64,000 nucleotides of DNA from Bdellovibrionales bacterium (GCA_965203095.1 OZ241877.1:1248001-1312000); one strand, 5' to 3'. Positions 33,612-53,408 are shown, numbered from the stretch's first letter. Numbers and translations are program-made. Notes: generated from the sequence alone by a model not told the origin.

Positions 33612-34859
33612 TTAGTGCCATAAAAATTGTAAAGGAACAGCATAAAGGCTATTCCCAAAACTAAGACTCCTATCTCCATTATAAAAAACCACCCCACAAA
33701 TAAACCGCTTTCCCAAAGTCTCTTTAATTTTGCGTAAGCCTTTAAAATCTGACATATAGACCGTAGCAGAAGATTTAACTTCCAAGCCTGCTGTCATATA
33801 ATCCCTTTCTATCACAATATCCACCTCAGTTCCTTTTTTATCCCGATAGTGAAAAAAACTGTGATGATGCTTATTATAACTGGCTTGCCTTTTTAGTTCT
33901 TGAAACACAAAAGTCTCCGTCAATTGTCCTAACAAAGCTGGGGTTTTTCCCAAAGATGAACGACTCAAATTAAGCAAAGCACAAGCTAAACCTGTGTCAC
34001 TGATATGAATTTTAGGAGTTTTAACAAGTCTTTTTAAATAGCGACTGTGCCAAGGAGGCAGTCTTTCCAAAAAAAACATTTGCTCAAGCAAAGCCACATA
34101 ATCACAAATTGTAGGGCGACTCACTTGAAAAGCACTTGCCAAATTAGAAAAATTTACAAGCTGAGCAGTTTGGCCAGCAGATAAAGCCAAAAGCCTTGGC
34201 AGTATATCGATGGATCGTGCTTTGGATATATCCCTTATATCTCTCTGAATAAGAGTTTCTATATAATCTCTATGCCAATCAGCTCTTCGCCTTCCCACTG
34301 GACGACTAAGTGCTGGAGGATAGCCACCGGAAACAATTTGATCCATCAAAAAACTCTTTACCGGCGATTTCGCTTTTTTAGCTTTAAATTTACAGTTAAA
34401 AAGATCATCCAAGAAATAAGACTGCCGGCGATTCAGCTCTTCTTGGGATAAAGGATGAAGCCTCAAAATTTTCATCCGCCCTGCCAATGAATCTGAAAGT
34501 TTTTTCATGCGTAAAATATTTGCAGAACCGGTCAATATGAAGCGACCGTATACATGGCGTTTTTTATCAATAGCTGTTTTAAGAGCAGAAAAAATTTGAG
34601 GTGCTTTTTGAGCCTCATCTAAAATGACTTTTTTGGGCAGATTTCTTACAAAACCAACAGGATCCGCTTTAGCCGAGGAAACTATCTCATCGTTGTCAAA
34701 ACTGATATAATCATATTTCTTAAGCTTTCCCACCATAAGAGCTAATGTTGTTTTTCCACATTGGCGAGGGCCATGAATAAGCGTTAGAGGAGAATCTCTC
34801 AAGCCTTCCAAAAAGAGAGCCTTTATGTGACGAGGATAAAAAGCTATTTTTTTAGCCAT
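33612..34859 (-). CDS. AAA_14 ATPase with DUF4143 domain
   Basis: GPRQCGKT, ILDEAQ, LTGS, KTPKIHISDTG, ETFVFQEL, YRDKKGTEVD..LEVK. Confidence 0.9.
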   Translation of the reverse strand: MAKKIAFYPRHIKALFLEGLRDSPLTLIHGPRQCGKTTLALMVGKLKKYDYISFDNDEIVSSAKADPVGFVRNLPKKVILDEAQKAPQIFSALKTAIDKKRHVYGRFILTGSANILRMKKLSDSLAGRMKILRLHPLSQEELNRRQSYFLDDLFNCKFKAKKAKSPVKSFLMDQIVSGGYPPALSRPVGRRRADWHRDYIETLIQRDIRDISKARSIDILPRLLALSAGQTAQLVNFSNLASAFQVSRPTICDYVALLEQMFFLERLPPWHSRYLKRLVKTPKIHISDTGLACALLNLSRSSLGKTPALLGQLTETFVFQELKRQASYNKHHHSFFHYRDKKGTEVDIVIERDYMTAGLEVKSSATVYMSDFKGLRKIKETLGKRFICGVVFYNGDRSLSFGNSLYAVPLQFLWH

Positions 34860-34900: not shown

Positions 34901-34964
34901 ACAGGGGCCAATTGAAAGATTATACAGGGGCCAATTGAAAGATTGCATGGGGGCTAATTGAAAG
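34901..34964. repeat. Three direct repeats of (ACA)GGGGCYAATTGAAAG(ATT)
   Basis: Exact 21-mers at 34901 and 34924 and a partial third copy ending at 34964; upstream of the 34859 start. Confidence 0.8.
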
Positions 34965-36135
34965 GTAAAAATACAAAAAAAGCCCCTTATTCTTTAGGAT
35001 ATAGCTTATTTCTTTTTTTGTAAGTTTGAATTTATGAGTAATATAGTTATCCAATTCCTGAATTTTATTTTTATTTTGCAAGATTTTATCTACCAATCTA
35101 ACCATTTTTGAAAAAGTTTTTTTATCCCACAAAGGTAAAGGCAAAGCTGAAATATGGCTTCGCAAAACTTTTATACTGGAAAATTTTTTTTGAAATAAAA
35201 ACTGATATAAAGAAGAGTTAAAAAGGGCTAAAATAACCTTAATGGGATAATCAGGGATTTTAGGAATCAGTATATTGGCACTGTTTAAAGTCAATCTTTT
35301 TTGATTGTCATAAGCAAAGATTAATTTATTTGAAATAAATTTGTAAATTAGCTTTTCTTTAGCCCGATACTTATATTCTGGAGCTGTTTGCTGGAATTTT
35401 TTAGGCTGGAATCGAATATAATGAGAAGGCTCAGCTAAAACAAACTTTTTAATGTCTTTTCCTAAATAAATAGGCTCAAAACCCGATTTATTTTTGGGAA
35501 TAATAAATTTTTTATTATTCCCCGTCACAATTCCTAAAGCCCAACTGGCATTATTTTTTAAAGTCATGTGTTTTGTTTTATATATTTTATCAATAATTTT
35601 AGAGTCCAATTTATTGGAATGAATATCAAAAATAAAATCATGATTGCTCATCCATTTTATTTGCCTCACTTTATATTTTTTATCTATATTCTGAATAACT
35701 GTTTGTTTTGCATTTTTGTTAGTTTTTTCCAAATCTAACCGGATTACAGGGGTAAAAACATATTTAAAAACACGGTGAAGATAAACGATTTTTTTGATTT
35801 GAGCTGTTTTTAAAATAAATTCTCTTATATCCTTATGTAGGCAAACATTTAAAATAGATTCAGGAAGTAAAAATGAAATTACCCCATCAGTGCCCAGCAA
35901 ACTAAAGCTTTTCTTGAGAAAATAAGAAAAAGACTCAAAAGAGGAAATTTGAGGATAAAGGCTTTTAAGCTGTTTTATCTCTGCTCTTGAAAAACTTGCA
36001 CCCCAAGGTGGATTTGTGGCTATAACATCAAAGTTTTTTATATCTTTATCCTTATGAAAGCTGAATAAGTCATTGTTTCTCACATCAAAAAGAGTATTTT
36101 TACAAAAGATATTTGGCTCAAAATTTTTATTTTTA

Positions 36136-37270
36136 TACTGGTTTGATTTAAAAAATCAAGTTTTTTTGATAAAGGTTTAGTTTTTGGCATTATGAGTTTT
36201 CCAAATCTTTTGGATGTTCTATAATATGTTTCTATGAACTCATTTTTAACTGGCAAGCAAAAAGCAGAGCTTTTAACTTTTCTTCGTTTGGAAAGGAATC
36301 GTAGGCGAGCGGATCGTATCCGGGTTATTTTGTTGCTGGATAGTGGAGAGTCTGTCACCGATATTGCGAGATTTTTATTTTTTGATGAAGGAACTATCAG
36401 AAACTGCAAAAGGCGTTATGAAGAAGGAGGTTTGTCGAGGTTGGTTTATGACGATCATAGAGGTCGCATGTCGTATTTATCTGAGGAACAACGGAAGAAA
36501 CTGGTTTTGGAGTTGGAGTCAAAGGTATATCCCACAACAAAGGCAGTTGTTTTATATGTTCAAAAGACATTTGGGGTTGTTTATACTGTGAATGGAATGA
36601 CGGCTTTACTTCACAAGTTAGATTTTTCATATAAGAAGCCAAAGGGTGTGCCTGGGAAGGCTGATATTGAGAAGCAGAAGGTGTTTATTCAAAGATATCG
36701 CAGGATAAAAAAGAGAGGTGATTTAGTGTATTTTGCGGATTCAACTCATCCTATGCTCAATCCTGTAATATCATCGGGTTGGATTAAGAAGGGGGTGGAG
36801 TTTAAGGTTAAAACTAATTCAGGTCGTGAGCGGGTGAATATAAATGGTGCGATAGAGATAAATAGTTTAGATTTTGTCAGTAGAAGCTGTGAGAGGGTTA
36901 ATAAAAATTCAATGCAGGAGTTATTGCGAGCTGTGAGGGCGAGACAGCCTATGAGGGATAAAAGGTTGTATTTGGTTTTAGACAATGCACCATATAACAG
37001 GGCCTTTCAGGTGAGGGATTTAGCGAAAAGTTTGGATATTACTTTGCTGTATTTGCCTCCATTTTCTCCTAATTTGAATCCTATTGAGAGGTTTTGGAAA
37101 TTTGTAAAGAAGAAGACAATGGCTAATGTGTATTTTTCAGATCTTAAAACTTTTCGTAAAGAGTTGATGCTGTTTTTAAGAGGTGTTAGAAAATACAGGG
37201 CTGAATTGTCCATGCTTATTACTGATAATTTTCATGTCATCGAAACCTGAAAATTCAAACAAGACCAGTA
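36136..37270 (+). mobile_element. IS630-family insertion sequence, copy 2 (TA duplication)
   Basis: Same length and ends as copy 1; TA at 36134-36135 and 37271-37272. Confidence 0.93.
36234..37250 (+). CDS. IS630 transposase
   Basis: Translation identical to 17861..18877. Confidence 0.95.
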   Translation: MNSFLTGKQKAELLTFLRLERNRRRADRIRVILLLDSGESVTDIARFLFFDEGTIRNCKRRYEEGGLSRLVYDDHRGRMSYLSEEQRKKLVLELESKVYPTTKAVVLYVQKTFGVVYTVNGMTALLHKLDFSYKKPKGVPGKADIEKQKVFIQRYRRIKKRGDLVYFADSTHPMLNPVISSGWIKKGVEFKVKTNSGRERVNINGAIEINSLDFVSRSCERVNKNSMQELLRAVRARQPMRDKRLYLVLDNAPYNRAFQVRDLAKSLDITLLYLPPFSPNLNPIERFWKFVKKKTMANVYFSDLKTFRKELMLFLRGVRKYRAELSMLITDNFHVIET

Positions 37271-38254
37271 TAAATTTTGTTAAAATATTAATTCTGGCAA
37301 TTCGGACGGCGGTTTTATCACAATCCATGCCATAGATATTTAATGGATTTTCCACAATATCAGCATAAGCCAACAAAAACTGGCCTGTTCCACAACAAGG
37401 GTCTAAAACTTTGGAATCTTTTTTTACATAATCTGTTATTATATCATTAACTATATTTGAAGGACTGTAATAAGATCCATTTTGAGATTTTTCTCCCTCA
37501 AATAAGAGGGATTGATAGAATATTCCTAAAATATCCCTTTGTTCCGGAAGATCGCAATCCAACAAAAAAGAAAAATAAGGCAGAATGTCTTGGTTTTTAA
37601 GTCCTAAAAGCCATGCTTTTATCTCTTTTTGAATTTTTTGATTGGCAAAAAGCCCGTTTTTGTTTTCTATAATGTCTTTAATACTTGTTTTTAAAAGTAT
37701 TCTTTCCTTTTTTAGAAAATTTAAACTGAGCAGGAAAAGAGCAGTTGTCGTTTTGATATTGTTTTTTTTGATAAAACTAATAATACGGTTAAACTCATTA
37801 AAATTGGCTTGGGTTTTCATAAGCTCTTTGGGGATAAATACCCTTCTGGCTTTGAGCTTATTGGCTCGTTTGTTTAATTTTTTTAACTCTCCAGTTGCAA
37901 GCTTTAGCTTGATCTTTTCAATATCAGATCTATAAAAAAAATGTTTATTTTTCTTTTTATGTGTAGGGATCTGTCTGCATTTTACCCAGTTGCGAACAGT
38001 GGCTGTTGAAATCCCCAGCAATTCAGCTGTTTCCTCTATATTTAGAATTTTCTCGGGGCTGGCCAATCCAAAATCAGAGACATTGTTGATCATTACTTAG
38101 CTCCTCTTGTTATTAAAACCTGTTTAATAACACTTTGCAAGCTCAAAATTTTAATTGATAAATGTCCTTACATTATGTTTGATTCTATGGTGACTGTCTC
38201 AATATGAGACATTTTTTTTGCAGATACAGTAAAGTTCATCAAAAAAGCTTGCAT

Positions 38255-39179: not shown

Positions 39180-40322
39180 TTAAGATCGGTCACTTAAGGC
39201 GGGCCAGTTTTTGTTTTTCTCGCCTTTATAGTGACTGGCAGGGCGATAAATCCGATTACCAGAATACTGTTCTTGAATATGGGCCAACCAGCCGGGCATG
39301 CGGGACATGGCAAAAATAGGGGTAAAAAGATCAGTAGGGATGCTCAAACAATGATAGACAGAGGCAGAGTAAAAATCCACATTGGCACAAAGACCTTTTT
39401 TCTCCTTAACCCTTTGCTCTATTGTTTGACTGATTAAAAAAAGTTTTTCTTTGTTTTTGCTTTTAGTGATCTTTTCGCTTACTGATTTTAGTAAAAGAGC
39501 ACGAGGGTCCTGGTTTTTATAAACCCTATGGCCAAAACCCATAATCTTTTCTTTTTTAGATAGAGCCTCATCCACAAATTCTTTGGCTTGACTCTCAGAA
39601 TCTATTTGGTTGAGCATTCGCATGACTTGCTCGTTAGCTCCACCGTGAAGAGGCCCTTTTAAAGCACCTATCGCACTTACAATCGCTGAGTAAAGATCAC
39701 TCAATGAGGAACTGACCACTCTGGCGGAAAAAGTAGAGCAGTTAAGCCCGTGCTCTGCATGGAGGATGAGGGCACGGTCTAAAATTTTGCTATCTTCCAA
39801 AGAAGGCTCTACCCCTGTTAAAGTGTAAAGAAAGTTCCATGCCAAACTTTTGTCTTTTTTAGGAGGGATAAAATGCAAATTTTGCCTTTGCCGATGGAAA
39901 AATGCTATCAATAAAGGAGTTTTTGCTATGAGCCTTAAACTGGCTTTCTCCACAAGGGAAGGATTTTGATAAAAAGAGGTTTGGCCCTCACCCATTTTTA
40001 AAGACAGGAGGGAGATTGCCGTCCTCAACCATGCCATAGGATGAACATTTTTTGTGGGCAATTTAGCCCAAGCCAAATCAGAATCCAAAACAAGCTGAAG
40101 GCTTAGGGCCTCATTCCAACTTTTTAGTTGAGCAGAAGAGGGGAGATGGCCCTTGAGTAAAAGATAAGCTGTTTCAGAAAAGCTGGAATGTTGAAATAGA
40201 TCTTCCAGACGATAACCCCTCAAACAGATGCCAGACTCATGAACATCCGAAAGAGCGGTGGAGCAAGCTTTAACCCCTTCTAAGCCTCTATCAATAGCCC
40301 CTTCATAAATAGTTGAAGACAT
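39180..40322 (-). CDS. Citrate / 2-methylcitrate synthase
   Basis: GLEGV, LHAEHGLNCSTF, GPLHGGANE, MGFGHRVYK, NVDFYS. Confidence 0.93.
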   Translation of the reverse strand: MSSTIYEGAIDRGLEGVKACSTALSDVHESGICLRGYRLEDLFQHSSFSETAYLLLKGHLPSSAQLKSWNEALSLQLVLDSDLAWAKLPTKNVHPMAWLRTAISLLSLKMGEGQTSFYQNPSLVEKASLRLIAKTPLLIAFFHRQRQNLHFIPPKKDKSLAWNFLYTLTGVEPSLEDSKILDRALILHAEHGLNCSTFSARVVSSSLSDLYSAIVSAIGALKGPLHGGANEQVMRMLNQIDSESQAKEFVDEALSKKEKIMGFGHRVYKNQDPRALLLKSVSEKITKSKNKEKLFLISQTIEQRVKEKKGLCANVDFYSASVYHCLSIPTDLFTPIFAMSRMPGWLAHIQEQYSGNRIYRPASHYKGEKNKNWPALSDRS

Positions 40323-40782: not shown

Positions 40783-41652
40783 TTGAGATTTGGCGGGCAT
40801 CAAAGTTTTCATTTAAGGGATCACTGGCTTTATAAAGGTAGCCAAGGTGTGAAAAAATCTCCTTCCCTCCTTTTTAAGCCTCATAAAGCTATGGAACAAA
40901 TAGGAGTTGGCAAAAACATGATGGAATCCATCAGATATTGGCTTACAGCCACTCGACTGATAAAAGAGGAGTCTGCGGGTATTTCCCTAACAGACACTGC
41001 AAAAAAGATTTTAGAAAAAGATCCTTACTTTGAGTTGGACGGCACTCTTTTTTTAATCCATTATCTTCTATCCACAAACAAGGAATCAGCCACAACATGG
41101 CATTGGTTTTTTAATCATTTTTCAGCTATGGAATTTGACAAAGAATCCTTAACTAACAGCTATCTTTCTTACATATCCATCCAATCAAGAAAAAAAATTA
41201 AAGACACAACATTAGAAAAAGATTTGAATTGCCTTTTAAGAATGTATCAATCTATAGAATATACTGGCAAAAAAAATCCTGAGACAGAAACCCCCTCTCC
41301 CTTTGTCAAGTATGGCTGGATAGAAAAGAAGGGGGATCGCTGGATCAGGCAAAAATTAAACATTGTGGATTTTGCTCCCGATATATTTGCTCATATTTTT
41401 TATATATTTTGGAAAAAAGATCTCAAGCAACCAGAGTCAGTTAAATTGGACGAACTGGCAAATAAGGAAAATTCTATAGGGCGAATCTTTCTCTTCACTT
41501 TAGAGGAGTTAGGTAGTTTTATAGAAGATCAATCTCAAAAAACAAATTATTTCCAATACTCCCGAACGGGTGGCTATCTTATTGTTTTGCCTAATGAGAG
41601 AGGTTTAAAAAAAGCTTTAGATAATTATTATAAGAAGGTCAATATTCAGTGA
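40783..41652 (+). CDS. sspB: DUF4007 family protein, SspB-like
   Basis: FGGHQSFHLRDHWLYKG, GVGKNMMESIRYWL, DPYFE..TLFLIHY, WHWFFN; first gene of the DUF4007-ATPase-PAPS reductase trio. Confidence 0.82.
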   Translation: MRFGGHQSFHLRDHWLYKGSQGVKKSPSLLFKPHKAMEQIGVGKNMMESIRYWLTATRLIKEESAGISLTDTAKKILEKDPYFELDGTLFLIHYLLSTNKESATTWHWFFNHFSAMEFDKESLTNSYLSYISIQSRKKIKDTTLEKDLNCLLRMYQSIEYTGKKNPETETPSPFVKYGWIEKKGDRWIRQKLNIVDFAPDIFAHIFYIFWKKDLKQPESVKLDELANKENSIGRIFLFTLEELGSFIEDQSQKTNYFQYSRTGGYLIVLPNERGLKKALDNYYKKVNIQ

Positions 41653-44600
41653 GGCCATATATCCAATTATCAGACAGCTATTACCGATCTACAAATTTAG
41701 ATCTGGACTTTAAAGATCCTTCCAAACTAAAGCCAATTTATTTTTCCTCTAAATTTCAAACCGGCTATCAAGAGATTTTGGTAACCATTTTAGAATCTAA
41801 CTCTAAACATAGGGTCAAAGTGTTAAGCGGATCGCCAGGGCTTGGAAAATCTACTTTTGCCCTATTTATAGCTCAAGCGGTATCAAAAAAACATCCACAA
41901 ATTGTCAAAAACTTAATTGCAAAAAGTAGAGCAAAATTAAAAAAAGAACATAAGCGATTTGCAAAAAGCAAAACAACAAAACTCCTTCCGGTTTTCATCA
42001 ATGGCTATGAGGGAGAAATAGAAACAGCTTTTAAAAACAAGTTAAAAAAATCTTTAACCGAGATAGGTATAGATCTAAAACAGCCCCCTAAAAGTGCTTT
42101 AGCTACTTATAAAAAAGCTTTGGATCTTTTAAAAACAAAAGGTTATGGGGGAATTTTTGTAATATATGATGAGTTTGGTAAATATCTTGAAAAAGGAATA
42201 CACAACCCAACCAATATGAACATTCAATTTTTGCAAGATTTTGCAGAGTTTTGCGACAGATCAGGTGCAAAACAATGCCACCTCATGCTTATTACTCATT
42301 TGTCTATTTCCCAATATGCCAGCCAACTCCCTATCAATATTCAACAAGAATGGGCCAAAATAGAAGGGCGGTTTCAAGAATCTGCTTTTTATGACAAAAA
42401 CACAGATTACTATAAGATGATATCTTTTGTTTTTAAAAAAAATATTTCTCAAACCAACAAAAAATTGAGCACAAAATATCAATCTTTTATAAAAAAATAT
42501 TTAAAAGGATTTAAAGCTAAAGGTTTTGAGGCGTTTATTGATCAAAAAAATTTAAAAGCCTTTCTTTTAAATTGTTATCCCTTGCATCCTGTTGTTTTGG
42601 GCCTTTTGCCTCATCTATCAAAAAAAATCTCTCAAAACGAGAGAACTATGTATACTTTTTTAACTCGCGATGAAAATCACTCCTTGAAAAGATTTTTATC
42701 TACCAACCTACAAGAAGACATTGCTTTATTAAAACCTTTTGATTTGTATAAATATTTTAGCCCTCTTATCGGAAAAGATGTAGGCATTGGTGGAACTTAT
42801 AAAATCCAGCTCATAGCAGAGGAGGCTTTTAACCTTATTGATAAAAAAGACGAAGTCTCTAAACAAATTATAAGTTTAATGGCTTTGTGTGGGGCTATCC
42901 GGGATTTCTATTTCACACCTTTAACGGAGGATTTTATATCCTCCTGTTTCAATCAAAGTTGGAGCAAAGTTCAAATTAAAAAAGCCATAAAAAACTTAAA
43001 AAACAAAAAACTTATTTTTTATAATAAAAATATCAAACAGTATTTATTGCAGGAGGGCTCCCCTATAGACATTGATGAAGAAATCTCTAAAATAAAAAAT
43101 GTTTCTTTAACCAGTAAAGCTTTAGTGCAAATTTTAAAAAGACATTTTAAAACTGATTTTATCACTCCCAAAAAATATAACTTTGATCATGCCATTACTC
43201 GCTTTTATAGGACAGAAATGATCTCTGTTGAAGAGCTAAAAAGCTTAAAATCGAGAAAAACTGTGGATTTTTACCGGGAGGACGGAGCTGTTTTTTATGT
43301 TATTCCCTTCAGCCATGACGAGCTAATTTACGCGAAAAAATTTATAAAAAATTTTTCATCCCCTTTAACCGTTTTTGTCCTCCCCCATCAGTTTGTGGAA
43401 TGCCGAAAAGACATTGAGGAGCTAAACGCTGTCCATTGCTTATCCAACAACAAAGAAATTGTATCCACTACCCCTTTAGTTAAAAAAGAGTTGGATCGCT
43501 ATAAGGATATTTTGCTTCATTCTATAAGCTCCCTCTTAAAACCTCTTATTGGCAGTATGAGAATGAGTGCAACAGTTCATTATCCTTTAAAAGGCAAAAA
43601 CAAAAAAATTAAGTGCTTTAATGATTTACAAAGGTTTTTAGGCGATTTGTTTGTAAAGGAATACAGCAAATACATAAAATTTAATTTAGAATATATGAAC
43701 CGCCACTCAGTTTCAGGAAGTATCACCTTAGGCCGGAAAAATTTTATTGATAAATTAAGGGCTTATAAAAAAGATTTAAAAGACATTCGGCAAAGCTACA
43801 CAGGCAAAGGGCCTGATTACGCGATATTTGATACTATGTGTAGATTCTCTAACTTTAAATACAACTCTAATCAAAGCATTTATGAAATTCCAAAAAAATC
43901 AGATTTTTATAGATTTTTTAAAGAATATAAGGCGATTCTAAATAAATATTCTAATGGAATCTCCGTTGATAAACTTTTAGATCTGCTTATTGCACCCCCT
44001 TTTGGCTTTCGTTTGGGAACTATTCCTGTCTTTATTGCTCTATCGGATTTATGCCTTAAACAACCAGTCAATCATTATTTTGATTCGGCTTATGTTAAAG
44101 ATTTAGACGGAGATCATTATGATCTGTTGATGAAATATCCTAAAAAAACTGTTATTCACTACATGGCTATAGATAACAAGCAACAAAGTTTTTTAGATGA
44201 AATAGGTAGTATTTTTAACACTAAAAATTCATCTATAAGAGGAGTTATTGAAGGGCTTTTAAAATGGAGAAAAACTGTTCCGGAATCTACAAAACTTTCT
44301 CAAAATTTATCTAAGGCGGGGAGAAAACTACTTATTCAAATCGACTCCTCTATAAAACCTGATCAACTTCTATTTGATGGAATCCCTAAAGCTTTTGAAA
44401 AGTCAAAAATAAATAGTCAAACAACAAATACGGAAATCAAGGATACTTTAAAAAAAATATCTCAAACAAAAAAAGAAATTGACGGAGTTTATAAAAAGCT
44501 GTTATTAAAAATAAAATTTGATCTTATAAGCTTTGCTAATTACATAACCAAGCAATGTTTTAACAACTCCTCTAAACTCATTAACAACAAACTCAATTTG

Positions 44601-45197
44601 TCTAATTTGGATTTTGTAAAAACTATGCCTGAAAATGCTCTACCTGAAACAACAGAAAACCTTAAACCGTCCAATAAGATTAAATTTGTTCAAAATACTC
44701 TTAAGCAGGTAAAAGATTATCCTTTAAGTTCTGGCACTAATCATTTTATAGGCCGGGTTTTAAACTTTGATCCTTCTAATTATGAGCAGTATTTTTTAGA
44801 AACTTCAGCTGATGTATTAACGGGTTCTTCCCCTCGGCATTGGAACAGCAAAACTTATTCTCAGTTTAAATTTGCTTTAAAGAAGATTACAACAGAAATA
44901 GAACTGGCTTGTGAGATAGCTCAGCCCAATTTTAATGGACAAACTGTATTGGCTTTTATAGATAAAGGGAAAAATAAAAAAACTTTTATAAAGCTTAGCA
45001 CTTATTCCGGTATAGATAGAGGTCTTAACTCTGCTACTAAAGAGATACAAAACCAGCTCAAAAATTTTGATGAGATAGATAAAAGAAAAATCATTCTATC
45101 TGTTTTAGAGGCAATGAACAAACAATCTTTAGAAAAAGACGATGAGGAAAATAGGGAAAGCGAAACCTATAATGAGGGGGTAGATGCCAATGTCTAA
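41649..45197 (+). CDS. sspC: Large P-loop ATPase, SspC-like
   Basis: RSTNLDLD, GSPGLGKS Walker A, IYDEFGKYLE Walker B, FLQDFAE, EWAKIEGRF, YPLHP, QNERT; 1182 aa. Confidence 0.8.
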   Translation: MRPYIQLSDSYYRSTNLDLDFKDPSKLKPIYFSSKFQTGYQEILVTILESNSKHRVKVLSGSPGLGKSTFALFIAQAVSKKHPQIVKNLIAKSRAKLKKEHKRFAKSKTTKLLPVFINGYEGEIETAFKNKLKKSLTEIGIDLKQPPKSALATYKKALDLLKTKGYGGIFVIYDEFGKYLEKGIHNPTNMNIQFLQDFAEFCDRSGAKQCHLMLITHLSISQYASQLPINIQQEWAKIEGRFQESAFYDKNTDYYKMISFVFKKNISQTNKKLSTKYQSFIKKYLKGFKAKGFEAFIDQKNLKAFLLNCYPLHPVVLGLLPHLSKKISQNERTMYTFLTRDENHSLKRFLSTNLQEDIALLKPFDLYKYFSPLIGKDVGIGGTYKIQLIAEEAFNLIDKKDEVSKQIISLMALCGAIRDFYFTPLTEDFISSCFNQSWSKVQIKKAIKNLKNKKLIFYNKNIKQYLLQEGSPIDIDEEISKIKNVSLTSKALVQILKRHFKTDFITPKKYNFDHAITRFYRTEMISVEELKSLKSRKTVDFYREDGAVFYVIPFSHDELIYAKKFIKNFSSPLTVFVLPHQFVECRKDIEELNAVHCLSNNKEIVSTTPLVKKELDRYKDILLHSISSLLKPLIGSMRMSATVHYPLKGKNKKIKCFNDLQRFLGDLFVKEYSKYIKFNLEYMNRHSVSGSITLGRKNFIDKLRAYKKDLKDIRQSYTGKGPDYAIFDTMCRFSNFKYNSNQSIYEIPKKSDFYRFFKEYKAILNKYSNGISVDKLLDLLIAPPFGFRLGTIPVFIALSDLCLKQPVNHYFDSAYVKDLDGDHYDLLMKYPKKTVIHYMAIDNKQQSFLDEIGSIFNTKNSSIRGVIEGLLKWRKTVPESTKLSQNLSKAGRKLLIQIDSSIKPDQLLFDGIPKAFEKSKINSQTTNTEIKDTLKKISQTKKEIDGVYKKLLLKIKFDLISFANYITKQCFNNSSKLINNKLNLSNLDFVKTMPENALPETTENLKPSNKIKFVQNTLKQVKDYPLSSGTNHFIGRVLNFDPSNYEQYFLETSADVLTGSSPRHWNSKTYSQFKFALKKITTEIELACEIAQPNFNGQTVLAFIDKGKNKKTFIKLSTYSGIDRGLNSATKEIQNQLKNFDEIDKRKIILSVLEAMNKQSLEKDDEENRESETYNEGVDANV

Positions 45198-46017
45198 AAT
45201 GTCTCATTTTAATTATGATAAAAAAAGACGGCAAGTTTGCCCGCTTTCTGGAGGTAAAGATTCTACGGCTTTGGCTATTTTTCTTAAAAGTAAAATTAAA
45301 AATTTAGAATATGTTTTTTGTGACACAGGGAGTGAGCTACCGGAAACATACCAATATTTAGATAAATTAGAAGCTTTTTTAGGTCAAAAAATCGTCCGGT
45401 TGAATAGTGAAAAAAATTTTGATTATTTATTAAAGCAACATTCAGATTATTTACCTTCCCCAAGAGCCCGCTGGTGCACTTTGGAAATGAAGATCAAATC
45501 TTTTGAAAAATATATCGGGAATGATCCTATAGAGAGTTATATTGGGATAAGGGCGGATGAACAGAGAGGGGGTTATATTTCTCAAAAAAACACAATTTTG
45601 CCTCGCTACCCTTTTAAAGAGGAGGGAATTGGTTTGGAGGGGGTAAATCAAATTTTAGAAGAATCGGGCATTGGCCTCCCAAAATATTATGAATGGAGAT
45701 CCCGATCGGGTTGTTATTTTTGCTTTTTTCAGAGGAAAATTGAATGGGTGGGTCTGTTGGAAAAACACCCCAAGCTTTTTGAAAAAGCCAAATGGTATGA
45801 AAAGCAAAATTATAAAGGGGACCATGTCTCTTTTACATGGGTTGAAGGCATGCCTTTAGAAGAAGTAGAAAAAAACAAAGAAAAAATCAAACAAAACTAT
45901 AAAACTCGTATGGAAAAGGCCCAACGGAATCAAAAAGGGAAACACATTACAGATGTTTTTAAGGATGTTGTAAATGATGACGATCAAGAGGACGCCTGCT
46001 TGATATGCGATTTGTGA
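45184..46017 (+). CDS. sspD: PAPS reductase family protein, SspD-like
   Basis: SGGKDS PP-loop, FCDTGSELPETY, RWCT, GIRADE, RSGCYFCFFQ, C-terminal CLIC. Confidence 0.85.
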   Translation: MPMSKMSHFNYDKKRRQVCPLSGGKDSTALAIFLKSKIKNLEYVFCDTGSELPETYQYLDKLEAFLGQKIVRLNSEKNFDYLLKQHSDYLPSPRARWCTLEMKIKSFEKYIGNDPIESYIGIRADEQRGGYISQKNTILPRYPFKEEGIGLEGVNQILEESGIGLPKYYEWRSRSGCYFCFFQRKIEWVGLLEKHPKLFEKAKWYEKQNYKGDHVSFTWVEGMPLEEVEKNKEKIKQNYKTRMEKAQRNQKGKHITDVFKDVVNDDDQEDACLICDL

Positions 46018-46039
46018 CACATAGTGGTTTTTAAAATAC

Positions 46040-47002
46040 ATGAAAACTGTTGAAATTTTTAAAAAATTTATAGAGAAAGTTTTTAAAACGACTTTGGAAG
46101 TATTTTTCCAAGCTTTAAAGATGAGTCCAAATGCTCAAGGGTATGTAGGGGGTTCAATTACTGAAATTCTGCTATGGAAAAAACTAAAAAGTCATGGTCT
46201 TGAAACTTTGCGTATTCGTGAAAAATGGGAAGGTACTAAACATAGAAATCATCGAGGGGATTTTTACTTTAAATACCAGTCAAGTTGGTATGTTGTTGAA
46301 GCTAAAGGAATCAAGTCCAATGCAGAGATATGGCATAAATTATATAATAAAAAAAATCTAAAAGATTTTTTAGTTAGGCATTCTAGCCTTCTTCCCTGGG
46401 TAAAAAATAAAAAATCTTCTGAAGACCAAGTTGAGAAATGGATGCTCTCTCACCTTCCTTATTTTTACAGCAATTATTCTGAGAATCTTTACAGCTTTGA
46501 AGAAGTTAAAAGATACAGTTTAAAGGGAGTCGGGACAAAGAAAGCACATTCTATTTCAAAACTAAAGAACAAATCTCAAGATGAAATAAATAAACTTATT
46601 TCCGAGAGAGTCAATTATATCAGATCAAAAATATCTGTATTGGAAACACATTTTGTTTCCGGAGTATCTGGTGGAGGATATAGAAGACAAGCCACACCCT
46701 GTTTTGATGAATTTAACCTTTTAGCAGTAGATATTTATCTTCAATATCCAAAACATTATTTTTTATTTGCAAATCCAAATAATTTATCTTCATCTGAGAA
46801 AGACAGCGATCATTTAAGACAAAATTATATTATGGGTTTTGTTTTAAATGATAAAAAAGGGAGAGCTTATTTATCATTAGATGAAGAGTGGATTCCTGAT
46901 TTAGACACAGTATTAAAAAGGCTTGATCCTAAAAAATCTATATTGGAAAAAGATATGCAAGTAGATAATCGTTATAATGATTTTAATAATATAAAGAAAT
47001 AG
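46040..47002 (+). CDS. Putative PD-(D/E)XK nuclease (restriction-endonuclease-like)
   Basis: E...GDFYF...VVEAK motif; directly upstream of a DNA methyltransferase. Confidence 0.6.
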   Translation: MKTVEIFKKFIEKVFKTTLEVFFQALKMSPNAQGYVGGSITEILLWKKLKSHGLETLRIREKWEGTKHRNHRGDFYFKYQSSWYVVEAKGIKSNAEIWHKLYNKKNLKDFLVRHSSLLPWVKNKKSSEDQVEKWMLSHLPYFYSNYSENLYSFEEVKRYSLKGVGTKKAHSISKLKNKSQDEINKLISERVNYIRSKISVLETHFVSGVSGGGYRRQATPCFDEFNLLAVDIYLQYPKHYFLFANPNNLSSSEKDSDHLRQNYIMGFVLNDKKGRAYLSLDEEWIPDLDTVLKRLDPKKSILEKDMQVDNRYNDFNNIKK

Positions 47003-47010
47003 AAGGTAAA

Positions 47011-49011
47011 ATGGAACAAATGCCACTAATAAAAAATCTATCTGATTTTTCTCAAAAAGAAAAATTAAGTCAAAAAACAATAATTTTATCTGCTCTTGAA
47101 GACTGTCATAACTATATTTATGCTAATGAGGGAATTTTAAAAGAAAAAGCTTTTCGAGAAATAATAAAAATTCTTTTTATGAAAATTTACTCTGAAAAGG
47201 CAGAAAATAGTTTGTTTCAAATTACTGAAAAAGAATATAAAAACATTTTTTTAGATATTTCATGCGAAAGCTTTAAGAAAAGAGTTAAAAAATTATATTG
47301 TAAGATTTCTGAAAGATCCTCGTTGAATGTTTGGAATGAGGGACTTCTTCTTAGTGTAAAAACTATAGCTTATATAATAGATCGCCTTCAATCTATTTCT
47401 TTAAAAAAAACTGTAGGAGATATATCTGGTCAAGCGTTTCAAACCTTTATTCATTCCCATCAGCGTGGAGAGAGGGGGGAGTTTTTTACCCCATCCCCTG
47501 TTGTGGAATTAGCTGTTAATATAATTAACCCTCGATTTGGCGAGAGGATAATTGATCCTGCTTGTGGAAGTGGTGGCTTTCTCTTGAGTGCTATTAAGTA
47601 TGTTGGTGGGCAAGTTTCAAATAAGAAACTGTCTCACTATATAAAACATAATATTCATGGTATTGAATTTAATCCTGATGTGGCCTTAACTGCTAAATTA
47701 CTGATTGAAATGGAAGGAGGGAGGGAATCCAATATCATTTGTGCCAATTCTCTCAGTATAGAAGAGCAACATGGCTCATTTGATATTACTCTTGCTAATC
47801 CACCCTTTGGCCGGAGAGGAAAAGTTGTAGATCCATCCATCCTTAATAAATATGACTTAGGTAAAAAATGGAGGCTTTCCGGCAAGAACCTTTGGTGTGC
47901 AAACAAATCTGTTTTGCATAACCAACCGCCAGAAATTTTGTTTATTGAAAAGTGTTTAAAACTTTTAAGGCCAGAGGGACGAATGGCTATTGTGGTTCCG
48001 GATGGCTTGTTGCAAAATTCTTCTTTAGCTTTTGTCAGGCATTGGATAAAATCACGAACCAGTGTTATAGGAATCATATCTCTTCCACAAGAAACTTTTA
48101 TGCCTTTTGGAACAGGGGTAAAAACCTCTTTGATTTTTTTAAGAAAAAACTTTCAAAAAAAGAATGTATTTTTCTCAAAAATAAAAAATATTGGTTATGA
48201 TGTTAAAGGAAATATACATTATAAACAACCTGTTCCTCTTTTGAACAATAAAAAAAATATCAAAACTGGCAACTTTTCTATCTTACAGAATATAAACAGT
48301 GACATTGATCAAGTAGTAAAAGCATTTCACAACAAAAAAAGAAAGAGAGCGTCATCTATTGCTTGGGAATTAAAACACTCTTTACTTAAAGATAGGTGGG
48401 ATGCTGAACATTACTCTTTAAATGACTTAGAGATGATTAGCCATTTGGATCCTAATAATATTCTTTCAAATTTTGTGGAAATTGTCCGGAAAAAAGAGGA
48501 TTTTTCCAAAATCAACCAAGATAAACTTAAATATATAGCTATATCTGACATAGACCGCTATGGGATGAGAATTGCCAATCATCAAAAACTATGCACTAAG
48601 GAATTGCCTTCAAGAGCTTCTTATAAAATAATTGAGGGGGATATCTTGTTGGCTGTATCAGGAGCTAATACAGGAACAGAAAAGCAAGCTGTGGCTATTG
48701 TCACAAAAGATTATAATGGGGCTATATGTTCCAACGGTTTTGCAGTATTGAGAAATACAAAAAACATAAACAAATATTACCTTTTAGCGTTTTTTAAAAC
48801 AGGAATTTTTATAAAACAAGTTCGCCGGATGATGACAGGCCATGCTATTCCTTGTATATCTTTAACCAATTTAGGAAATATTATTATCCCTATTCCTAAA
48901 AAAAATGTTCAAAACAAAATTGCTGAGAAAACAAAACGAATTATTAAACTCAGTCAAATTCAGAATAAAGAATTGGATTATTTAAAAAAAGAAGCCATTT
49001 TTAACCTGTGA
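47011..49011 (+). CDS. N6-adenine DNA methyltransferase with fused C-terminal specificity (TRD/HsdS-like) domain
   Basis: GEFFTP, IIDPACGSGGFL, ANPPFG, AIVVPDG; C-terminal LPSRA..GDILL..CSNGFAVL..IPIP..Q. Confidence 0.88.
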   Translation: MEQMPLIKNLSDFSQKEKLSQKTIILSALEDCHNYIYANEGILKEKAFREIIKILFMKIYSEKAENSLFQITEKEYKNIFLDISCESFKKRVKKLYCKISERSSLNVWNEGLLLSVKTIAYIIDRLQSISLKKTVGDISGQAFQTFIHSHQRGERGEFFTPSPVVELAVNIINPRFGERIIDPACGSGGFLLSAIKYVGGQVSNKKLSHYIKHNIHGIEFNPDVALTAKLLIEMEGGRESNIICANSLSIEEQHGSFDITLANPPFGRRGKVVDPSILNKYDLGKKWRLSGKNLWCANKSVLHNQPPEILFIEKCLKLLRPEGRMAIVVPDGLLQNSSLAFVRHWIKSRTSVIGIISLPQETFMPFGTGVKTSLIFLRKNFQKKNVFFSKIKNIGYDVKGNIHYKQPVPLLNNKKNIKTGNFSILQNINSDIDQVVKAFHNKKRKRASSIAWELKHSLLKDRWDAEHYSLNDLEMISHLDPNNILSNFVEIVRKKEDFSKINQDKLKYIAISDIDRYGMRIANHQKLCTKELPSRASYKIIEGDILLAVSGANTGTEKQAVAIVTKDYNGAICSNGFAVLRNTKNINKYYLLAFFKTGIFIKQVRRMMTGHAIPCISLTNLGNIIIPIPKKNVQNKIAEKTKRIIKLSQIQNKELDYLKKEAIFNL

Positions 49012-49247
49012 AAAAACTTTTGAAATACCCGCTCAGCCTGCCAAAAAGTCCCTCAGACTTTTTTATTCCACTGCAAAAAGGAATCCACATCTTCTCTCAG
49101 AAAAGCCTCACCACAGGAATTTTGCTTATGCCAATGAGAGGATTAAAAAAATAGCTTTTCCTAATTTCCAGTCTTGACAGCATAAAGATAGCTGATATAT
49201 CGTCTATTTTATAGGAGCTTATTTAAAACCAATAAGGAGATTAAAAA

Positions 49248-51149
49248 ATGTCTGAAAAACTAAAAGTTCAAGTTTTAGAAGGAGCTGATAATAAGCTGGA
49301 TCTGGCAAAATTGGAAGATATTTTAAAAAGAAAGCTTATTATCCCCTCTTATCAGCGACCTTATTCTTGGAAAACTGAAGATATAAAAGAGATATTTGAA
49401 ACAATTAAAACAGCAAGAGAAAATGAAGAGAACCTTTACTTTTTTGGATCCATAATTTTATCTCAAAAAAGCAATGCTACTTATGGACAAGAGGAATACT
49501 ATATTATTGACGGACAACAAAGGCTCTCTTCATTTCTTCTTATATTGAAGGTTATTTTAATTGAGTTAAAACATCTTCTCAAAGAATTAGAGGGAAAGGG
49601 GAACCAATCAAAAGAGCAAATAAAAAAGGAAACTGAACTGGAATCTAAAAAAGAGGAACTGTCAAAAATAATTGATACTGTAAGTTTAACAAGAGAACAG
49701 TCTGATGATAGTGAGGAAAAATCTATACTCCATTTCATTAAAAAGGGCAAAGATTATGAGAATCTTCCAGATCATTTAGACAAAAAAATAAAAGAAATAT
49801 ATGAGCATTCTATAGTTCCCTTTCAAAAGGAATGGCCAGATCCAGCTGACGAGAAGTTTTTAAATAAATACATTGATGAAACTCTAAGTTTTTTAGATCA
49901 AATTTTAAATCAAATTAAATTTTGTTTGATCAACATTACAGGGCAAAATTCAGAAGATTTTGCCATTAACCTGTTCAATACATTAAACACAACAGGTCAA
50001 CCTTTGACTGCTTTTGAGGTTTTAAAATCAGAACTGTATAAGATTGATCCAAAATTATCAAAAACCATTGATGAGATACAAAAAGATATCATAAAAAAAT
50101 ATACTTTTCAGAGAAAAAAAATTATCAGCCATACAGGAAAACTCCTTCTTTACCTTCCTCTTTACAGAGGGGATTTTAAAGAAGATAGCTACACCCTATC
50201 GGACAGAAAATTTAAAGATCAAAGAGGCTATTTAAAAGAGGTTTTAGATTCAAAAACAGCCTCTCAACTGGTAGAAGATATTAAAACTGTTGATGAGTTT
50301 TATTCCCAATTTTGGCTGGATCCGGACTCTATAAAAAAATTGCTGAAAAAAGATGACGAGCGAGTCTGTTTTCATTTTTTATCAGAGTTAACACATGATC
50401 GCGTTTTGCCTATAATGATCCGCTTTCATAAAAACCAAAGAGAATCCTTGGGCAAGTGTGTAAAAGTTTGCACAGCCTTTTCCAGCCTTTGGCGTGCATT
50501 TTCTGATGGAGGCACTTCTGGAGTGGATAAAGCTTATAAAGATATTTCATTAGATCTAAAAGAGGATCATAGTATTGAAAATCTGAATAAGAAGTTAAAG
50601 GAGCTTTTTCTAAAAAAATTATCATCTAAACCATCCAGTAGTATTAATATTGAGGAAGCTAAAGATACATGGTTGAAAAAATTAAAAATAAGCACTGTAT
50701 ATAAAAATCAAAAACTCTCTAAGTTTTTGCTTTTCATAGCTTATAATAAATTACATTTTAATTCTAACACAAAACTTTTGCAAAAAAGCAAGGGGATAGA
50801 CATTCTAAAATTACATTATTGGAAAGATGAAGATTATAAAACCATAGAACATATAATCCCTAAGACTAATAGAACATTCTTTAGTCATATTCATACTTTA
50901 GGCAATCTTACTCTTTTGCCTCAAAAATTAAATTCCTCTGTAGGAGATAAGCCTTTCTCAGAAAAACTTAAACAATACAAAAAATTTTGCTCAACAGAAA
51001 ACGAAGATAAATATCCCTACCTTCCCCTAATAAAGCATATTGCCCATTGTAATCAGTTTAAGCAAGAAGAGATAGAAGATCGATCAAAAATTCTATCTGA
51101 ATTTGTTTGGAAGACATTGGCTGAGGATTGGTTGGGTTGGAGAGAATGA
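49248..51149 (+). CDS. sspE: DUF262-DUF1524 (HNH) protein, SspE/GmrSD-like
   Basis: IPSYQRPYSW, FFGSII, IIDGQQRL, FNTLNTTG; TIEHIIP...LGNLTLL..LNS. Confidence 0.78.
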   Translation: MSEKLKVQVLEGADNKLDLAKLEDILKRKLIIPSYQRPYSWKTEDIKEIFETIKTARENEENLYFFGSIILSQKSNATYGQEEYYIIDGQQRLSSFLLILKVILIELKHLLKELEGKGNQSKEQIKKETELESKKEELSKIIDTVSLTREQSDDSEEKSILHFIKKGKDYENLPDHLDKKIKEIYEHSIVPFQKEWPDPADEKFLNKYIDETLSFLDQILNQIKFCLINITGQNSEDFAINLFNTLNTTGQPLTAFEVLKSELYKIDPKLSKTIDEIQKDIIKKYTFQRKKIISHTGKLLLYLPLYRGDFKEDSYTLSDRKFKDQRGYLKEVLDSKTASQLVEDIKTVDEFYSQFWLDPDSIKKLLKKDDERVCFHFLSELTHDRVLPIMIRFHKNQRESLGKCVKVCTAFSSLWRAFSDGGTSGVDKAYKDISLDLKEDHSIENLNKKLKELFLKKLSSKPSSSINIEEAKDTWLKKLKISTVYKNQKLSKFLLFIAYNKLHFNSNTKLLQKSKGIDILKLHYWKDEDYKTIEHIIPKTNRTFFSHIHTLGNLTLLPQKLNSSVGDKPFSEKLKQYKKFCSTENEDKYPYLPLIKHIAHCNQFKQEEIEDRSKILSEFVWKTLAEDWLGWRE

Positions 51150-52411
51150 TTTATTTTGATTATAATTCCACAGCTCCTTATTCCCCTTTGGTGAGGGAGT
51201 ATTTGCAGGCAAATATATTGGAGGATTGGCAAAACCCTTCCTCTGTTTATCCACAAGCACAAGTTTTGGATCAAAGGCTTAAGGAATGCCGAAAAGCTAT
51301 TGCAGAGCATTTGAACTGTTCTCCTAAAAATATGTTTTTCACAAGTGGTGGAACAGAATCCATTAACACCATCTTATCACCGGAAACATTGAGATTGAAC
51401 CAGCTATCCGGTTTTATCACTTCCCCCTTAGAACACCATGCAAGCTTAAAAAGATTGGAATATTTATCTCAAAACAGGAGCTTTTACCAAAAAATTAAAA
51501 GTGAAAAGTATAGTGGAGGGGGGCACGATCCACAAACCAAAATTCATTGGGTAGGACATAATAGCCAAGGGGAGATGGATCTTAACAGTTTGGAGAAAAT
51601 TTGTTCTCAAAACCCTTGTTCTTTGCTTTCCTTTCTGAGTGCTAATAATGAAACTGGGGTAATCAACAATATTCAGGAAATAAGCAAAATTGCCAGAAAA
51701 TATAAATGCCTTGTTCATATAGACATGGCTCAATCCCTTGGAAAAATTTTTATAGATTTAGAGGATGTGGATTTTGCCAGTTTCTCAGGCCATAAAGTGG
51801 GAGCTATGAAGGGCATTGGCCTGCTTTATGCTAAAAAAGCCTTTGCCCCTTTAATGCAGGGCGGAGGGCAAGAGCAAGGTTTTAGGCCGGGGACTTATAA
51901 TTTCCCAGCCATTTACTCTTTAAAATTAGCTGTTCAAGATATTGATTTTTCAAAATGGGAATTTATCAGAAAATTAAGAAATTATTTTGAAAATTCTTTA
52001 TTGGGCAAAAAAGAAGATGAAACAACGCTCTCCGCCCATAAAACCCATTTAACTCCTTTTAAAATTAATTGCCAGGGGGCTAATCGCTTGCCAAACACTA
52101 CCAATCTTTATTGTGGTCCCGGTATAAGCAATCAAGCCGTTTTACTGTTTTTAGCTCAAAGAGGGATATGTGTTTCTACTGGATCAGCTTGCAATGCCGG
52201 ATCCCCTGAGCCTTCCCATGTTCTTACAAACTTAGCAAGATTAGAAACTTTAGATGATCCTTTGTATGATCCAAGGGGATATGCAAGATCCTGCATTAGA
52301 GTTTCTTTTTCCCCTAATAACACAAAACAGGAAGTGGATAATTTGATAGGAGCTTTATATGATTTTCATTCTAAAAACCACCGATTAGATATACCCGCCA
52401 TAACACTTTAA
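51146..52411 (+). CDS. sspA: Cysteine desulfurase (IscS/DndA/SspA-like)
   Basis: IYFDYNST, FTSGGTES, ANNETG, SFSGHK (PLP Lys), STGSAC (catalytic Cys). ATG overlaps the TGA of the upstream gene. Confidence 0.82.
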   Translation: MIYFDYNSTAPYSPLVREYLQANILEDWQNPSSVYPQAQVLDQRLKECRKAIAEHLNCSPKNMFFTSGGTESINTILSPETLRLNQLSGFITSPLEHHASLKRLEYLSQNRSFYQKIKSEKYSGGGHDPQTKIHWVGHNSQGEMDLNSLEKICSQNPCSLLSFLSANNETGVINNIQEISKIARKYKCLVHIDMAQSLGKIFIDLEDVDFASFSGHKVGAMKGIGLLYAKKAFAPLMQGGGQEQGFRPGTYNFPAIYSLKLAVQDIDFSKWEFIRKLRNYFENSLLGKKEDETTLSAHKTHLTPFKINCQGANRLPNTTNLYCGPGISNQAVLLFLAQRGICVSTGSACNAGSPEPSHVLTNLARLETLDDPLYDPRGYARSCIRVSFSPNNTKQEVDNLIGALYDFHSKNHRLDIPAITL

Positions 52412-52496: not shown

Positions 52497-53408
52497 TCAG
52501 CTTTTCTTTTTTTCAGAAAAATAGTTTAAAGCCAAAAAGCCAAAAAAAGCAGATGTGGCATAAAAAATAAAAATCAGCTTTTCTTCTGAAAGAACAAAAA
52601 AATCCGTTTTAGGTTCCGTTTTAGATAAGGGGTAAATGGCATAAAGACTGGTTAAAAGCAAGGCGGAGACAAAAGCCATAGTCTCATCAAAATGATTTTT
52701 CAAAAAATAATTCATCCACCGGGCCATAAAAAAGATCCCTAACAGTGCTCCCACAAAAAAACAAAAAATAATAGGGAGATCTCCTGCCTTTAAAGCTAAA
52801 AGTGTTTTTTCATACAAACCCAAAATGAGCAGAATATAAGATCCGGAAAGCCCAGGAATAATCAAAGTGCCCGCCACCACAAAACCGGCGGGGAAAAAAA
52901 GAAAAGGGGAAGGGTTTTTGGCAGGAAAAGAAAAAAGATTTTCCCCAAAAACAAAAACTCCACCACTAAGCAGGAAGAACATACAAAACAAAGTGAGGGT
53001 CCGGCGGGTCTTTTTCATTTCCCTAAAAGGTTTAAAGAGGCTGGCCAAAACCAAACCCACCAGAGCAGAATAAAATGGCAAAGCCCATCGCTCAATAAGC
53101 TCTGGAGCCAGGGCCACAAAAAGGAAAACTGCCAATAAAAGCCCCAACAATAAAGGGCTTAAAAAAGCCCAGTCATAGTTATTCCAAAAAAAAGGGCTTT
53201 TTGGCTTTTTTTTAAACAACAAGTAGGGCCTAATGCTTTTGAAATGCTTAGGCCCAGTTTTAGAAATCTCAAAAATAAGCTTTTTGTAAATGCCCAAAAC
53301 AAAGGCCATAGTTCCGCCGGAAATGCCAGGGAGCATAATGGAAGTCCCTAAAACAAAGCCTTTTAAAATAAGAGTGAGGAGGATCTTTGTCCGGTGAGTG
53401 GGCTTCAA
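52497..53408 (-). CDS. DUF368 family membrane protein
   Basis: PGISGGTMAFVLGIY and IIPGLSGSYILLILGLY repeated motifs. Confidence 0.88.
   Translation of the reverse strand: MKPTHRTKILLTLILKGFVLGTSIMLPGISGGTMAFVLGIYKKLIFEISKTGPKHFKSIRPYLLFKKKPKSPFFWNNYDWAFLSPLLLGLLLAVFLFVALAPELIERWALPFYSALVGLVLASLFKPFREMKKTRRTLTLFCMFFLLSGGVFVFGENLFSFPAKNPSPFLFFPAGFVVAGTLIIPGLSGSYILLILGLYEKTLLALKAGDLPIIFCFFVGALLGIFFMARWMNYFLKNHFDETMAFVSALLLTSLYAIYPLSKTEPKTDFFVLSEEKLIFIFYATSAFFGFLALNYFSEKKKS

Follow-up and report, generated by a model that had tools for sequence, protein, structure and literature searches.

A predicted Type II restriction-modification cassette nested between sspD and sspE in a phosphorothioation operon of a Bdellovibrionales bacterium

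Introduction

Ssp systems protect bacteria by a mark on the DNA backbone and an enzyme that responds to it. SspABCD writes single-strand phosphorothioates (PT) at CpsCA, and SspE is a PT-stimulated nucleoside triphosphatase and nickase (PMC9646914, PMC8092258). For sspBCD, a total of 2,678 loci is given in PMC8092258. Here, a stretch of 64,000 nucleotides from a Bdellovibrionales bacterium (GCA_965203095.1, OZ241877.1:1248001-1312000), in the following called the window, was analyzed at positions 40783-52411, where seven open reading frames (ORFs), all on the plus strand, lie between a citrate synthase and a DUF368 gene. Five of them are ssp genes, and a nuclease candidate and an N6-adenine methyltransferase are nested between sspD and sspE. 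This raises the question whether the seven genes form one hybrid system, in which a sulfur and a methyl mark co-operate, or whether two systems have become stacked in one operon. The analysis argues with good confidence for the latter, that is for a standard Ssp operon in which a mobile, self-sufficient Type II restriction-modification (R-M) cassette landed in the variable junction between sspD and the effector gene.

The ssp genes and the layout of the locus

The genes follow the order sspB-sspC-sspD-[320-aa nuclease candidate and 666-aa methyltransferase]-sspE-sspA (Table 1). The first three genes overlap, sspB and sspC by 4 nt and sspC and sspD by 14 nt. Gaps of 22, 8 and 236 bp then follow one after the other up to sspE, which overlaps with sspA by 22 nt. 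All seven ORFs are full length with intact motifs. All five Ssp components (SspB, SspC, SspD, SspE and SspA) were identified by PADLOC with E-values from 6.6e-61 to 2e-129, and for each of the core genes the PADLOC profile of Ssp outscores those of BREX. For the ATPase SspC no Pfam match was obtained, and the next-best other PADLOC family after SspC is BrxC (9e-45). The rival PADLOC families reach only 4.7e-4 (DndC) and 9.4e-07 (BrxP) for the SspD protein, which is 82-88% identical to the SspD proteins of the relatives. In the translation of SspE the DGQQR motif is read at residues 88-92. The cysteine desulfurase SspA also matches DndA of PADLOC (8.3e-76), and its NCBIfam scores for NifS and DndA lie under the curated cut-offs of these models.

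Two other defense systems were considered for the locus and rejected. In the case of BREX, the methyltransferase reaches only 27.9 bits against the PglX model of NCBIfam (cut-off 500) and none of the seven locus proteins matches PglZ. In the case of MADS, the same protein obtains 284.4 bits for MAD2 (cut-off 720) and 61.2 for MAD5 (cut-off 400), and no other mad genes are present within the locus. Since the PglX and MAD2 scores lie far under the cut-offs, the profile matches identify a complete, ordinary SspBCD-SspE-SspA phosphorothioation set, which is neither BREX nor MADS. A search of the locus against Rfam gave no match.

A sequence-only reading of the same DNA, made beforehand, had described seven co-oriented genes that make up a complete Ssp locus with a nuclease and a methyltransferase nested where sspD meets sspE. 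The gene coordinates were found again unchanged, the profile comparison ORF by ORF favors the Ssp families over BREX-type and other families, and both nested ORFs indeed lie between sspD and sspE. With regard to the spacing, its 22-bp and 8-bp gaps are correct, whereas the 236-bp gap between the methyltransferase gene and sspE had gone unmentioned.

The GC content of the locus is 0.30-0.35 in comparison to 0.38-0.41 in the flanks. In a synteny check on the limits of the island, the citrate synthase and DUF368 orthologues were not found as neighbors in 5 congeners.

Table 1. Coordinates of the ssp locus, the nested cassette and neighboring genes, counted from the first nucleotide of the window.
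Feature	Position	Strand	Basis or remark
sspB, DUF4007, 289 aa	40783-41652	+	Pfam DUF4007 1.5e-69; PADLOC SspB 6.6e-61
sspC, ATPase, 1182 aa	41649-45197	+	PADLOC SspC 2e-129 over 9-1084
sspD, PAPS-reductase-like, 277 aa	45184-46017	+	PADLOC SspD 9.2e-107; Pfam PAPS_reduct 1.1e-10
Restriction endonuclease candidate, 320 aa, PD-(D/E)XK fold	46040-47002	+	structure model and invariant motif
N6-adenine methyltransferase with one Type-I-like target recognition domain (M~S chain), 666 aa	47011-49011	+	Pfam, PADLOC, PDB
sspE, DUF262 and DUF1524, 633 aa	49248-51149	+	PADLOC SspE 5.9e-69; Pfam GmrSD_N 7.7e-33, GmrSD_C 1e-09
sspA, cysteine desulfurase, 427 aa	51128-52411	+	Pfam Aminotran_5 6.1e-52; PADLOC SspA 7.3e-78
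Inserted segment, ~3.2 kb	46018-49247	+	sspD stop codon to sspE ribosome-binding site; right edge approximate
Spacer, 236 bp	49012-49247	+	between methyltransferase gene and sspE
AT-rich 8-bp hairpin in spacer	49043-49063		
Promoter-like site in spacer	49174-49203		TTGACA-18-TATCGT
Citrate synthase	39180-40322	-	left flank
DUF368/VCA0040-like gene	52497-53408	-	right flank
AAA_14 and DUF4143 ATPase	31889-33052	+	paralogue of the following
AAA_14 and DUF4143 ATPase	33612-34859	-	paralogue of the preceding
Second N6-adenine methyltransferase gene, apparently split	34920-38093	-	
C-terminal piece of it	34920-36083	-	rest of N6_Mtase, Eco57I, TaqI_C
IS630-like DDE_3 transposase	36234-37250	+	
N-terminal piece of it	37176-38093	-	HTH_17 and start of N6_Mtase

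The nested nuclease and methyltransferase

The first gene of the nested pair encodes a 320-aa protein, for which no match was found in Pfam, PADLOC or NCBIfam, none in the PDB sequences at E <= 1 and none in phage records. It has 690 homologues, all named 'hypothetical', which are more than 50% identical across phyla, and the residues D74, E87 and K89 (D74...E87-x-K89) are invariant in this family. The AlphaFold model of the protein (predicted local distance difference test score, pLDDT, of 82) aligns best with I-Ssp6803I in VIA-align (Z 12.3, root-mean-square deviation 4.1, 146 aligned), followed by Hjc (Z 9.2) and at lower scores by NhoI, HhaI and PvuII. A Foldseek search against the PDB gave nothing at E <= 0.001, and its weak rows were PD-(D/E)XK enzymes. 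Within the ESM Atlas the nearest named cluster is 'putative MspA1I restriction endonuclease' (0.92), which is taken as a lead only. The predicted fold and the invariant motif make this protein a candidate PD-(D/E)XK restriction endonuclease of an unnamed family.

The second gene encodes an N6-adenine methyltransferase fused to one target recognition domain (TRD) resembling those of Type I specificity subunits. Pfam places N6_Mtase at residues 137-396 (3.4e-36) and Methylase_S at residues 488-658 (1.5e-07), PADLOC gives MTase_II (3e-69) and Specificity_I (3.6e-18), and the PDB sequences matched are the M subunit of StySJI (5.3e-29) and S subunits (1.7e-13). The motifs of the gamma class of N6-adenine methyltransferases, an FxGxG-type S-adenosylmethionine site and NPPF, are present, and D182-P-A-C-G-x-G-G-F (D182-F190) as well as N263-P-P-F (to F266) are invariant in 27 methyltransferase sequences.

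Dimeric gamma-methyltransferases in which modification (M) and specificity (S) parts are fused, designated M~S, are known from the Type II R-M enzymes M.XmnI, M.DrdI as well as M.XcmI, and AhdI ('Type 1 1/2', Type IIH) is a related version with M and S on separate chains (PMC3874165, PMC4081073). The window protein resembles the fused class, as judged from the class descriptions, in that a gamma N6 methyltransferase carries one C-terminal Type-I-like TRD on the same chain and is accompanied by a separate small endonuclease. Unlike AhdI, M and S are fused here. Judged by these domains and motifs, the nested pair is a predicted Type II R-M cassette with a methyltransferase of the XmnI/DrdI/XcmI-type M~S fusion.

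A nuclease that borrows its specificity from a hypervariable TRD was also considered. This was rejected, as hypervariability was not seen: the mean pairwise identity amounts to 51% in the TRD, against 55% in the core of the methyltransferase and 63% in the nuclease. As conservation is similar in the TRD and in the catalytic core, the cassette family looks like a fixed-specificity R-M system. A search of the genome for avoidance of symmetric 3+N+3 sites revealed no single-spacer outlier; low values are shared by GAA N3, N4 and N5 TTC, an effect of strand composition.

The edges of the insertion and possible signals for transcription

The DNA similarity to the closest relative (locus L097) ends at the sspD stop codon, and in the canonical relatives only 35-74 bp lie between sspD and sspE in comparison to ~3.2 kb in the window. 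On the right side, the ribosome-binding region upstream of sspE, CAATAAGGAG, is common to the window and the related locus L098 of genome G009. The 236-bp spacer in front of sspE resembles none of the fetched loci and no other part of the window. It contains a 20-nt near-repeat (85%) of the sspE ribosome-binding region (49131-49150 versus 49229-49248), which may be an insertion remnant or due to chance.

The hairpin of the spacer is not unusual in stability (fold z-score 0.55) and was not called a terminator. The promoter-like site scores 10 of 12 in the scan and has a perfect -35 hexamer, while the number of such sites in the region is near the shuffled expectation. Both signals are weak. Between the sspD stop codon and the start of the nuclease gene no terminator-like site was found. 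Due to this and the gap of only 22 bp, transcription of the cassette probably starts at the ssp promoter or inside sspD, and read-through is plausible in view of its closeness to sspD. For sspE and sspA this arrangement may mean that they now need read-through or a new promoter within the spacer.

The proposed mode of action would then be as follows. By analogy to the Ssp family, SspBCD together with SspA would write the PT mark and SspE would read it. The methyltransferase, probably a homodimer, would place methyl groups on adenines of each half of a symmetric site; sites lacking this methylation would be cut by the PD-(D/E)XK enzyme. The cassette of endonuclease and M~S-fused gamma-class methyltransferase would be lodged in the operon as a passenger. 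The two self/non-self systems would stand side by side in one transcription context, linked by position, and their contributions to defense would be additive.

Occurrence of the pair outside of ssp loci

If the pair were part of an Ssp system, it should be tied to ssp genes. Therefore, the neighborhoods of both partners were compared. From genomes of many bacterial phyla and archaea, 80 loci were fetched, each encoding a relative of the window nuclease. In 78 of them the next gene after the nuclease encodes a homologue of the methyltransferase; both genes are full length in 60, with a median gap of 3 bp. True ssp genes are nearby in a single locus (L079), and a further one (L068) shows a weak DUF262 match only; at least 5 kb are available on both sides in 34 of the 80. 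The cassette is non-embedded in 78 of the 80 loci. The same pair is found on a Thermus thermophilus plasmid, where it is annotated as 'hypothetical protein' and 'N-6 DNA methylase'. Approached from the side of the phosphorothioation genes, none of 80 metagenomic sspD neighborhoods contains a match to either the nuclease or the methyltransferase. Since the pair occurs without ssp genes and is absent from the metagenomic sspD loci, the cassette is autonomous.

Within the order of the window organism the nuclease is sporadic (6/384 genomes), and four of these six genomes also encode SspD. Here, the two systems are nested (G000, the genome of the window itself), adjacent (G007), 50 kb apart (G366) or on different contigs (G356). 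The closest relative of the window nuclease, with 75% identity, is that of G356 (L188 9698-10637); it is split by a frameshift and its methyltransferase is intact. In decaying R-M pairs the nuclease is usually lost before the methyltransferase.

The variable junction of the ssp operon

Of 61 relatives, 6 encode a true SspD, and so do two more genomes of the family. All eight Ssp loci differ at the sspC-sspD or the sspD-effector junction. G011 shows the canonical order sspB-C-D-E-A with ~50 bp between sspD and sspE. In G009 (L098 10698-13673) the additional genes are located between sspC and sspD, namely a 692-aa GmrSD-like gene (GmrSD_N 6.6e-25; PADLOC PDC-M55C and HEC-05) and unknown ORFs of 175 and 95 aa. 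G006 has 2.8 kb between sspD and sspE (L094 10210-13000) that contain no ORF longer than 95 aa; neither an Rfam match for this stretch nor Pfam or PADLOC matches for its small ORFs were found, and it may represent decayed cargo. A different DUF262 protein occupies the position of sspE in G002 as well as in G366, the latter with an extra 168-aa ORF. Furthermore, in G007 sspE is internally deleted, with residues 1-58 and 602-632 left, and its neighbors are an insertion sequence (IS) gene and a truncated member of the cassette family. In G356 a 138-aa ORF is present and the sspD 3' end occurs a second time shortly before sspE, and in the window genome it is the R-M cassette that separates sspD from sspE.

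The additional sspD 3' end of G356 (L191 5504-5749) is a 44%-identical copy of residues 210-277 that follows the intact sspD and the 138-aa ORF. This looks like the footprint of an exchange of the effector module by recombination within sspD.

A similar picture is obtained for the metagenomic loci. Here, sspB, sspC and sspD are nearly always contiguous, with gaps of more than 200 bp in 0/38 sspB-sspC and 5/58 sspC-sspD pairs. The genes after sspD are diverse and comprise SspFGH, PbeA-like, DndB-like, NsnA-like and HIT-family genes and many unknowns. A deoxyribosyltransferase-like gene precedes sspF in L124, and a UPF0236 gene lies between sspC and sspD in L157. The metagenomic loci closest to the window, L104 and L105 (SspD 70-71% identical), carry an ORF of 505-507 aa with a Methyltransf_23 domain, located antisense between sspD and sspA (L104 9308-10825 and L105 1117-2640, both on the minus strand), for which PADLOC gave no match.

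Alternative explanations

Some observations weigh against the cassette being a mere passenger. No insertion scars mark the cassette: neither direct nor inverted repeats were found to flank it, and a search for target duplications and terminal repeats gave none. Many of the 80 genome loci are short contigs, so that the absence of ssp genes could be judged on both sides in 34 only. Furthermore, the cassette is nested or adjacent in two of the four genomes with both systems, which is above random placement in a 2-Mb genome, and a selective or functional link beyond the clustering in defense islands may exist. A true hybrid, as put forward by the sequence-only reading, would go further: nuclease and methyltransferase would co-operate mechanistically with SspBCD and SspE, with the methyl mark for example guiding or limiting PT writing, or with the PD-(D/E)XK nuclease serving as a second PT-dependent effector. 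The co-oriented and tightly packed genes with their 22-bp and 8-bp gaps fit to this, as does a second genome of the genus (G007), in which a member of the cassette family is situated 2.7 kb from ssp. However, this G007 copy is only 52% identical and divergent, an IS gene stands between it and ssp, and its methyltransferase is truncated. In G356 and G366 the two systems lie far from each other, and the canonical relatives run from sspD straight into sspE. Above all, the pair stands alone in 78 of the 80 genome loci and is missing from all 80 metagenomic sspD loci. Such a co-operation is therefore very unlikely, and the functional PT/methylation hybrid finds no support; the same reading had itself named a pair that is found independently of ssp genes and acts additively as the sign of a passenger, the independent occurrence being what is seen here, and the survey of sspD neighborhoods that it proposed recovers the two-gene insert in none of the 80 metagenomic loci. 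Its other suggestion, an Ssp locus used as a hotspot for defense cargo, is supported by the variable junctions of the eight related loci.

In contrast to a passenger beside a working operon, the insertion could also have uncoupled sspE and sspA from the sspBCD promoter, leaving the effector on its way out and the R-M pair as a selfish element maintained by post-segregational killing. The 236-bp spacer with its hairpin, which now separates the methyltransferase gene from sspE, points in this direction. Relatives that have lost or replaced their effector (the sspE remnant of G007, the replacements in G002 and G366) and the frameshifted cassette nuclease of G356 next to an intact methyltransferase do so as well. 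Against this, all seven ORFs of the window are full length with intact motifs, and the spacer offers a promoter-like site with a perfect -35 hexamer, while its AT-rich hairpin was not called a terminator. A decaying Ssp system is accordingly considered unlikely. Finally, the R-M cassette of another organism could have been joined into the ssp operon during assembly. The source appears to be metagenome-assembled, and the runs in question also contain related strains (loose ends at 49357). Nevertheless, independent Logan contigs from two runs span both junctions with zero differences from the window, one of 6.7 kb from X1 covering 44500-49914 and one of 13 kb from X3 covering 44500-50500, and a 304-nt Logan contig from a second sample (X4) bridges the junction of sspD and the nuclease gene. 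The runs X1 and X3 may derive from the same sample as the window assembly. A chimera is hardly conceivable: the nested arrangement is not an assembly artefact and its junctions are physically real.

A possible second patch upstream of the locus

Upstream of the citrate synthase gene, a second N6-adenine methyltransferase gene appears to be split by the gene of an IS630-like transposase into an N-terminal and a C-terminal piece (Table 1). At this position the GC content falls to 0.27-0.32. The broken gene is adjoined by two paralogous ATPase genes. The paralogous ATPases and the broken methyltransferase suggest a second mobile or defense patch ~6 kb upstream of the Ssp locus.

Relation to known systems

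By its genes, the locus shares with the described Ssp systems the five components and an SspE that contains DGQQR in its DUF262 domain plus DUF1524. It differs in the order sspB-C-D-[insert]-E-A, in which sspA comes last, and in the 3.2-kb R-M cassette that parts sspD from sspE. Also, SspE of the window is shorter than the SspE profiles of PADLOC (633 aa in comparison to ~770 positions).

Defense genes nested inside other defense systems have been reported for Hma, BREX, DISARM and Type I R-M; the nested genes there are mostly other defense systems that also occur non-embedded elsewhere (Payne et al., bioRxiv 10.1101/2024.01.29.577857). The window cassette resembles these cases, since it is cargo between the genes of one multi-gene, modification-based system and is mostly non-embedded elsewhere. 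It differs from them in its host, which is Ssp here. Within the parts of the main text of that preprint that were available, Ssp appears only through SspE as a GmrSD-like comparator and not as a host. Embedded Type II R-M cassettes have also been reported in acr-aca operons. BREX carries the embedded Type IV enzyme BrxU (bioRxiv 10.1101/2024.01.29.577857), and here as there a modification-based system with a BrxC-like ATPase (SspC versus BrxC, 9e-45) holds an unrelated nuclease system. Unlike BREX, no PglZ, PglX or BrxL was seen in the window locus, and unlike BrxU, its cargo would be an R-M pair blocked by modification and not a modification-dependent enzyme. A literature search, which covered part of the sources, yielded no paper on an R-M system inside an ssp operon, a negative that carries little weight. 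The locus is a new instance of a known phenomenon, and the modest extension lies in Ssp as the host and in the unnamed restriction endonuclease family.

Conclusions and perspectives

The seven-gene "hybrid" comes down to two known kinds of systems stacked in one operon, and the original claim weighs less by this. What is gained are two leads. The nuclease family is large, conserved and nearly always paired with an M~S-fused methyltransferase, and it is without an entry in Pfam, PADLOC, NCBIfam or the PDB. This makes it an easy target for naming and for the determination of its recognition site.

Furthermore, the region after sspD in Ssp operons, at least in this lineage of small genomes, is a variable slot in which nucleases and unknown genes accumulate. 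This slot extends the idea of embedding to Ssp, which is not analyzed as a host in the available main text of the preprint by Payne et al., and it gives candidates for further study. A bolder view would be that the sspD-effector junction is a dedicated exchange slot, with cargo wired to the ssp promoter, the sulfur and methyl systems behaving as one unit and the R-M pair acting as a stabilizing addiction module. This is a speculative and rather doubtful proposal. If true, effectors and unrelated defense cargo would be swapped by recombination, and the systems would be regulated, inherited and lost together. This would add Ssp to the hosts for 'guilt-by-embedding', and the small ORFs of the junctions as well as the antisense methyltransferase-like gene would be new candidates for defense genes.

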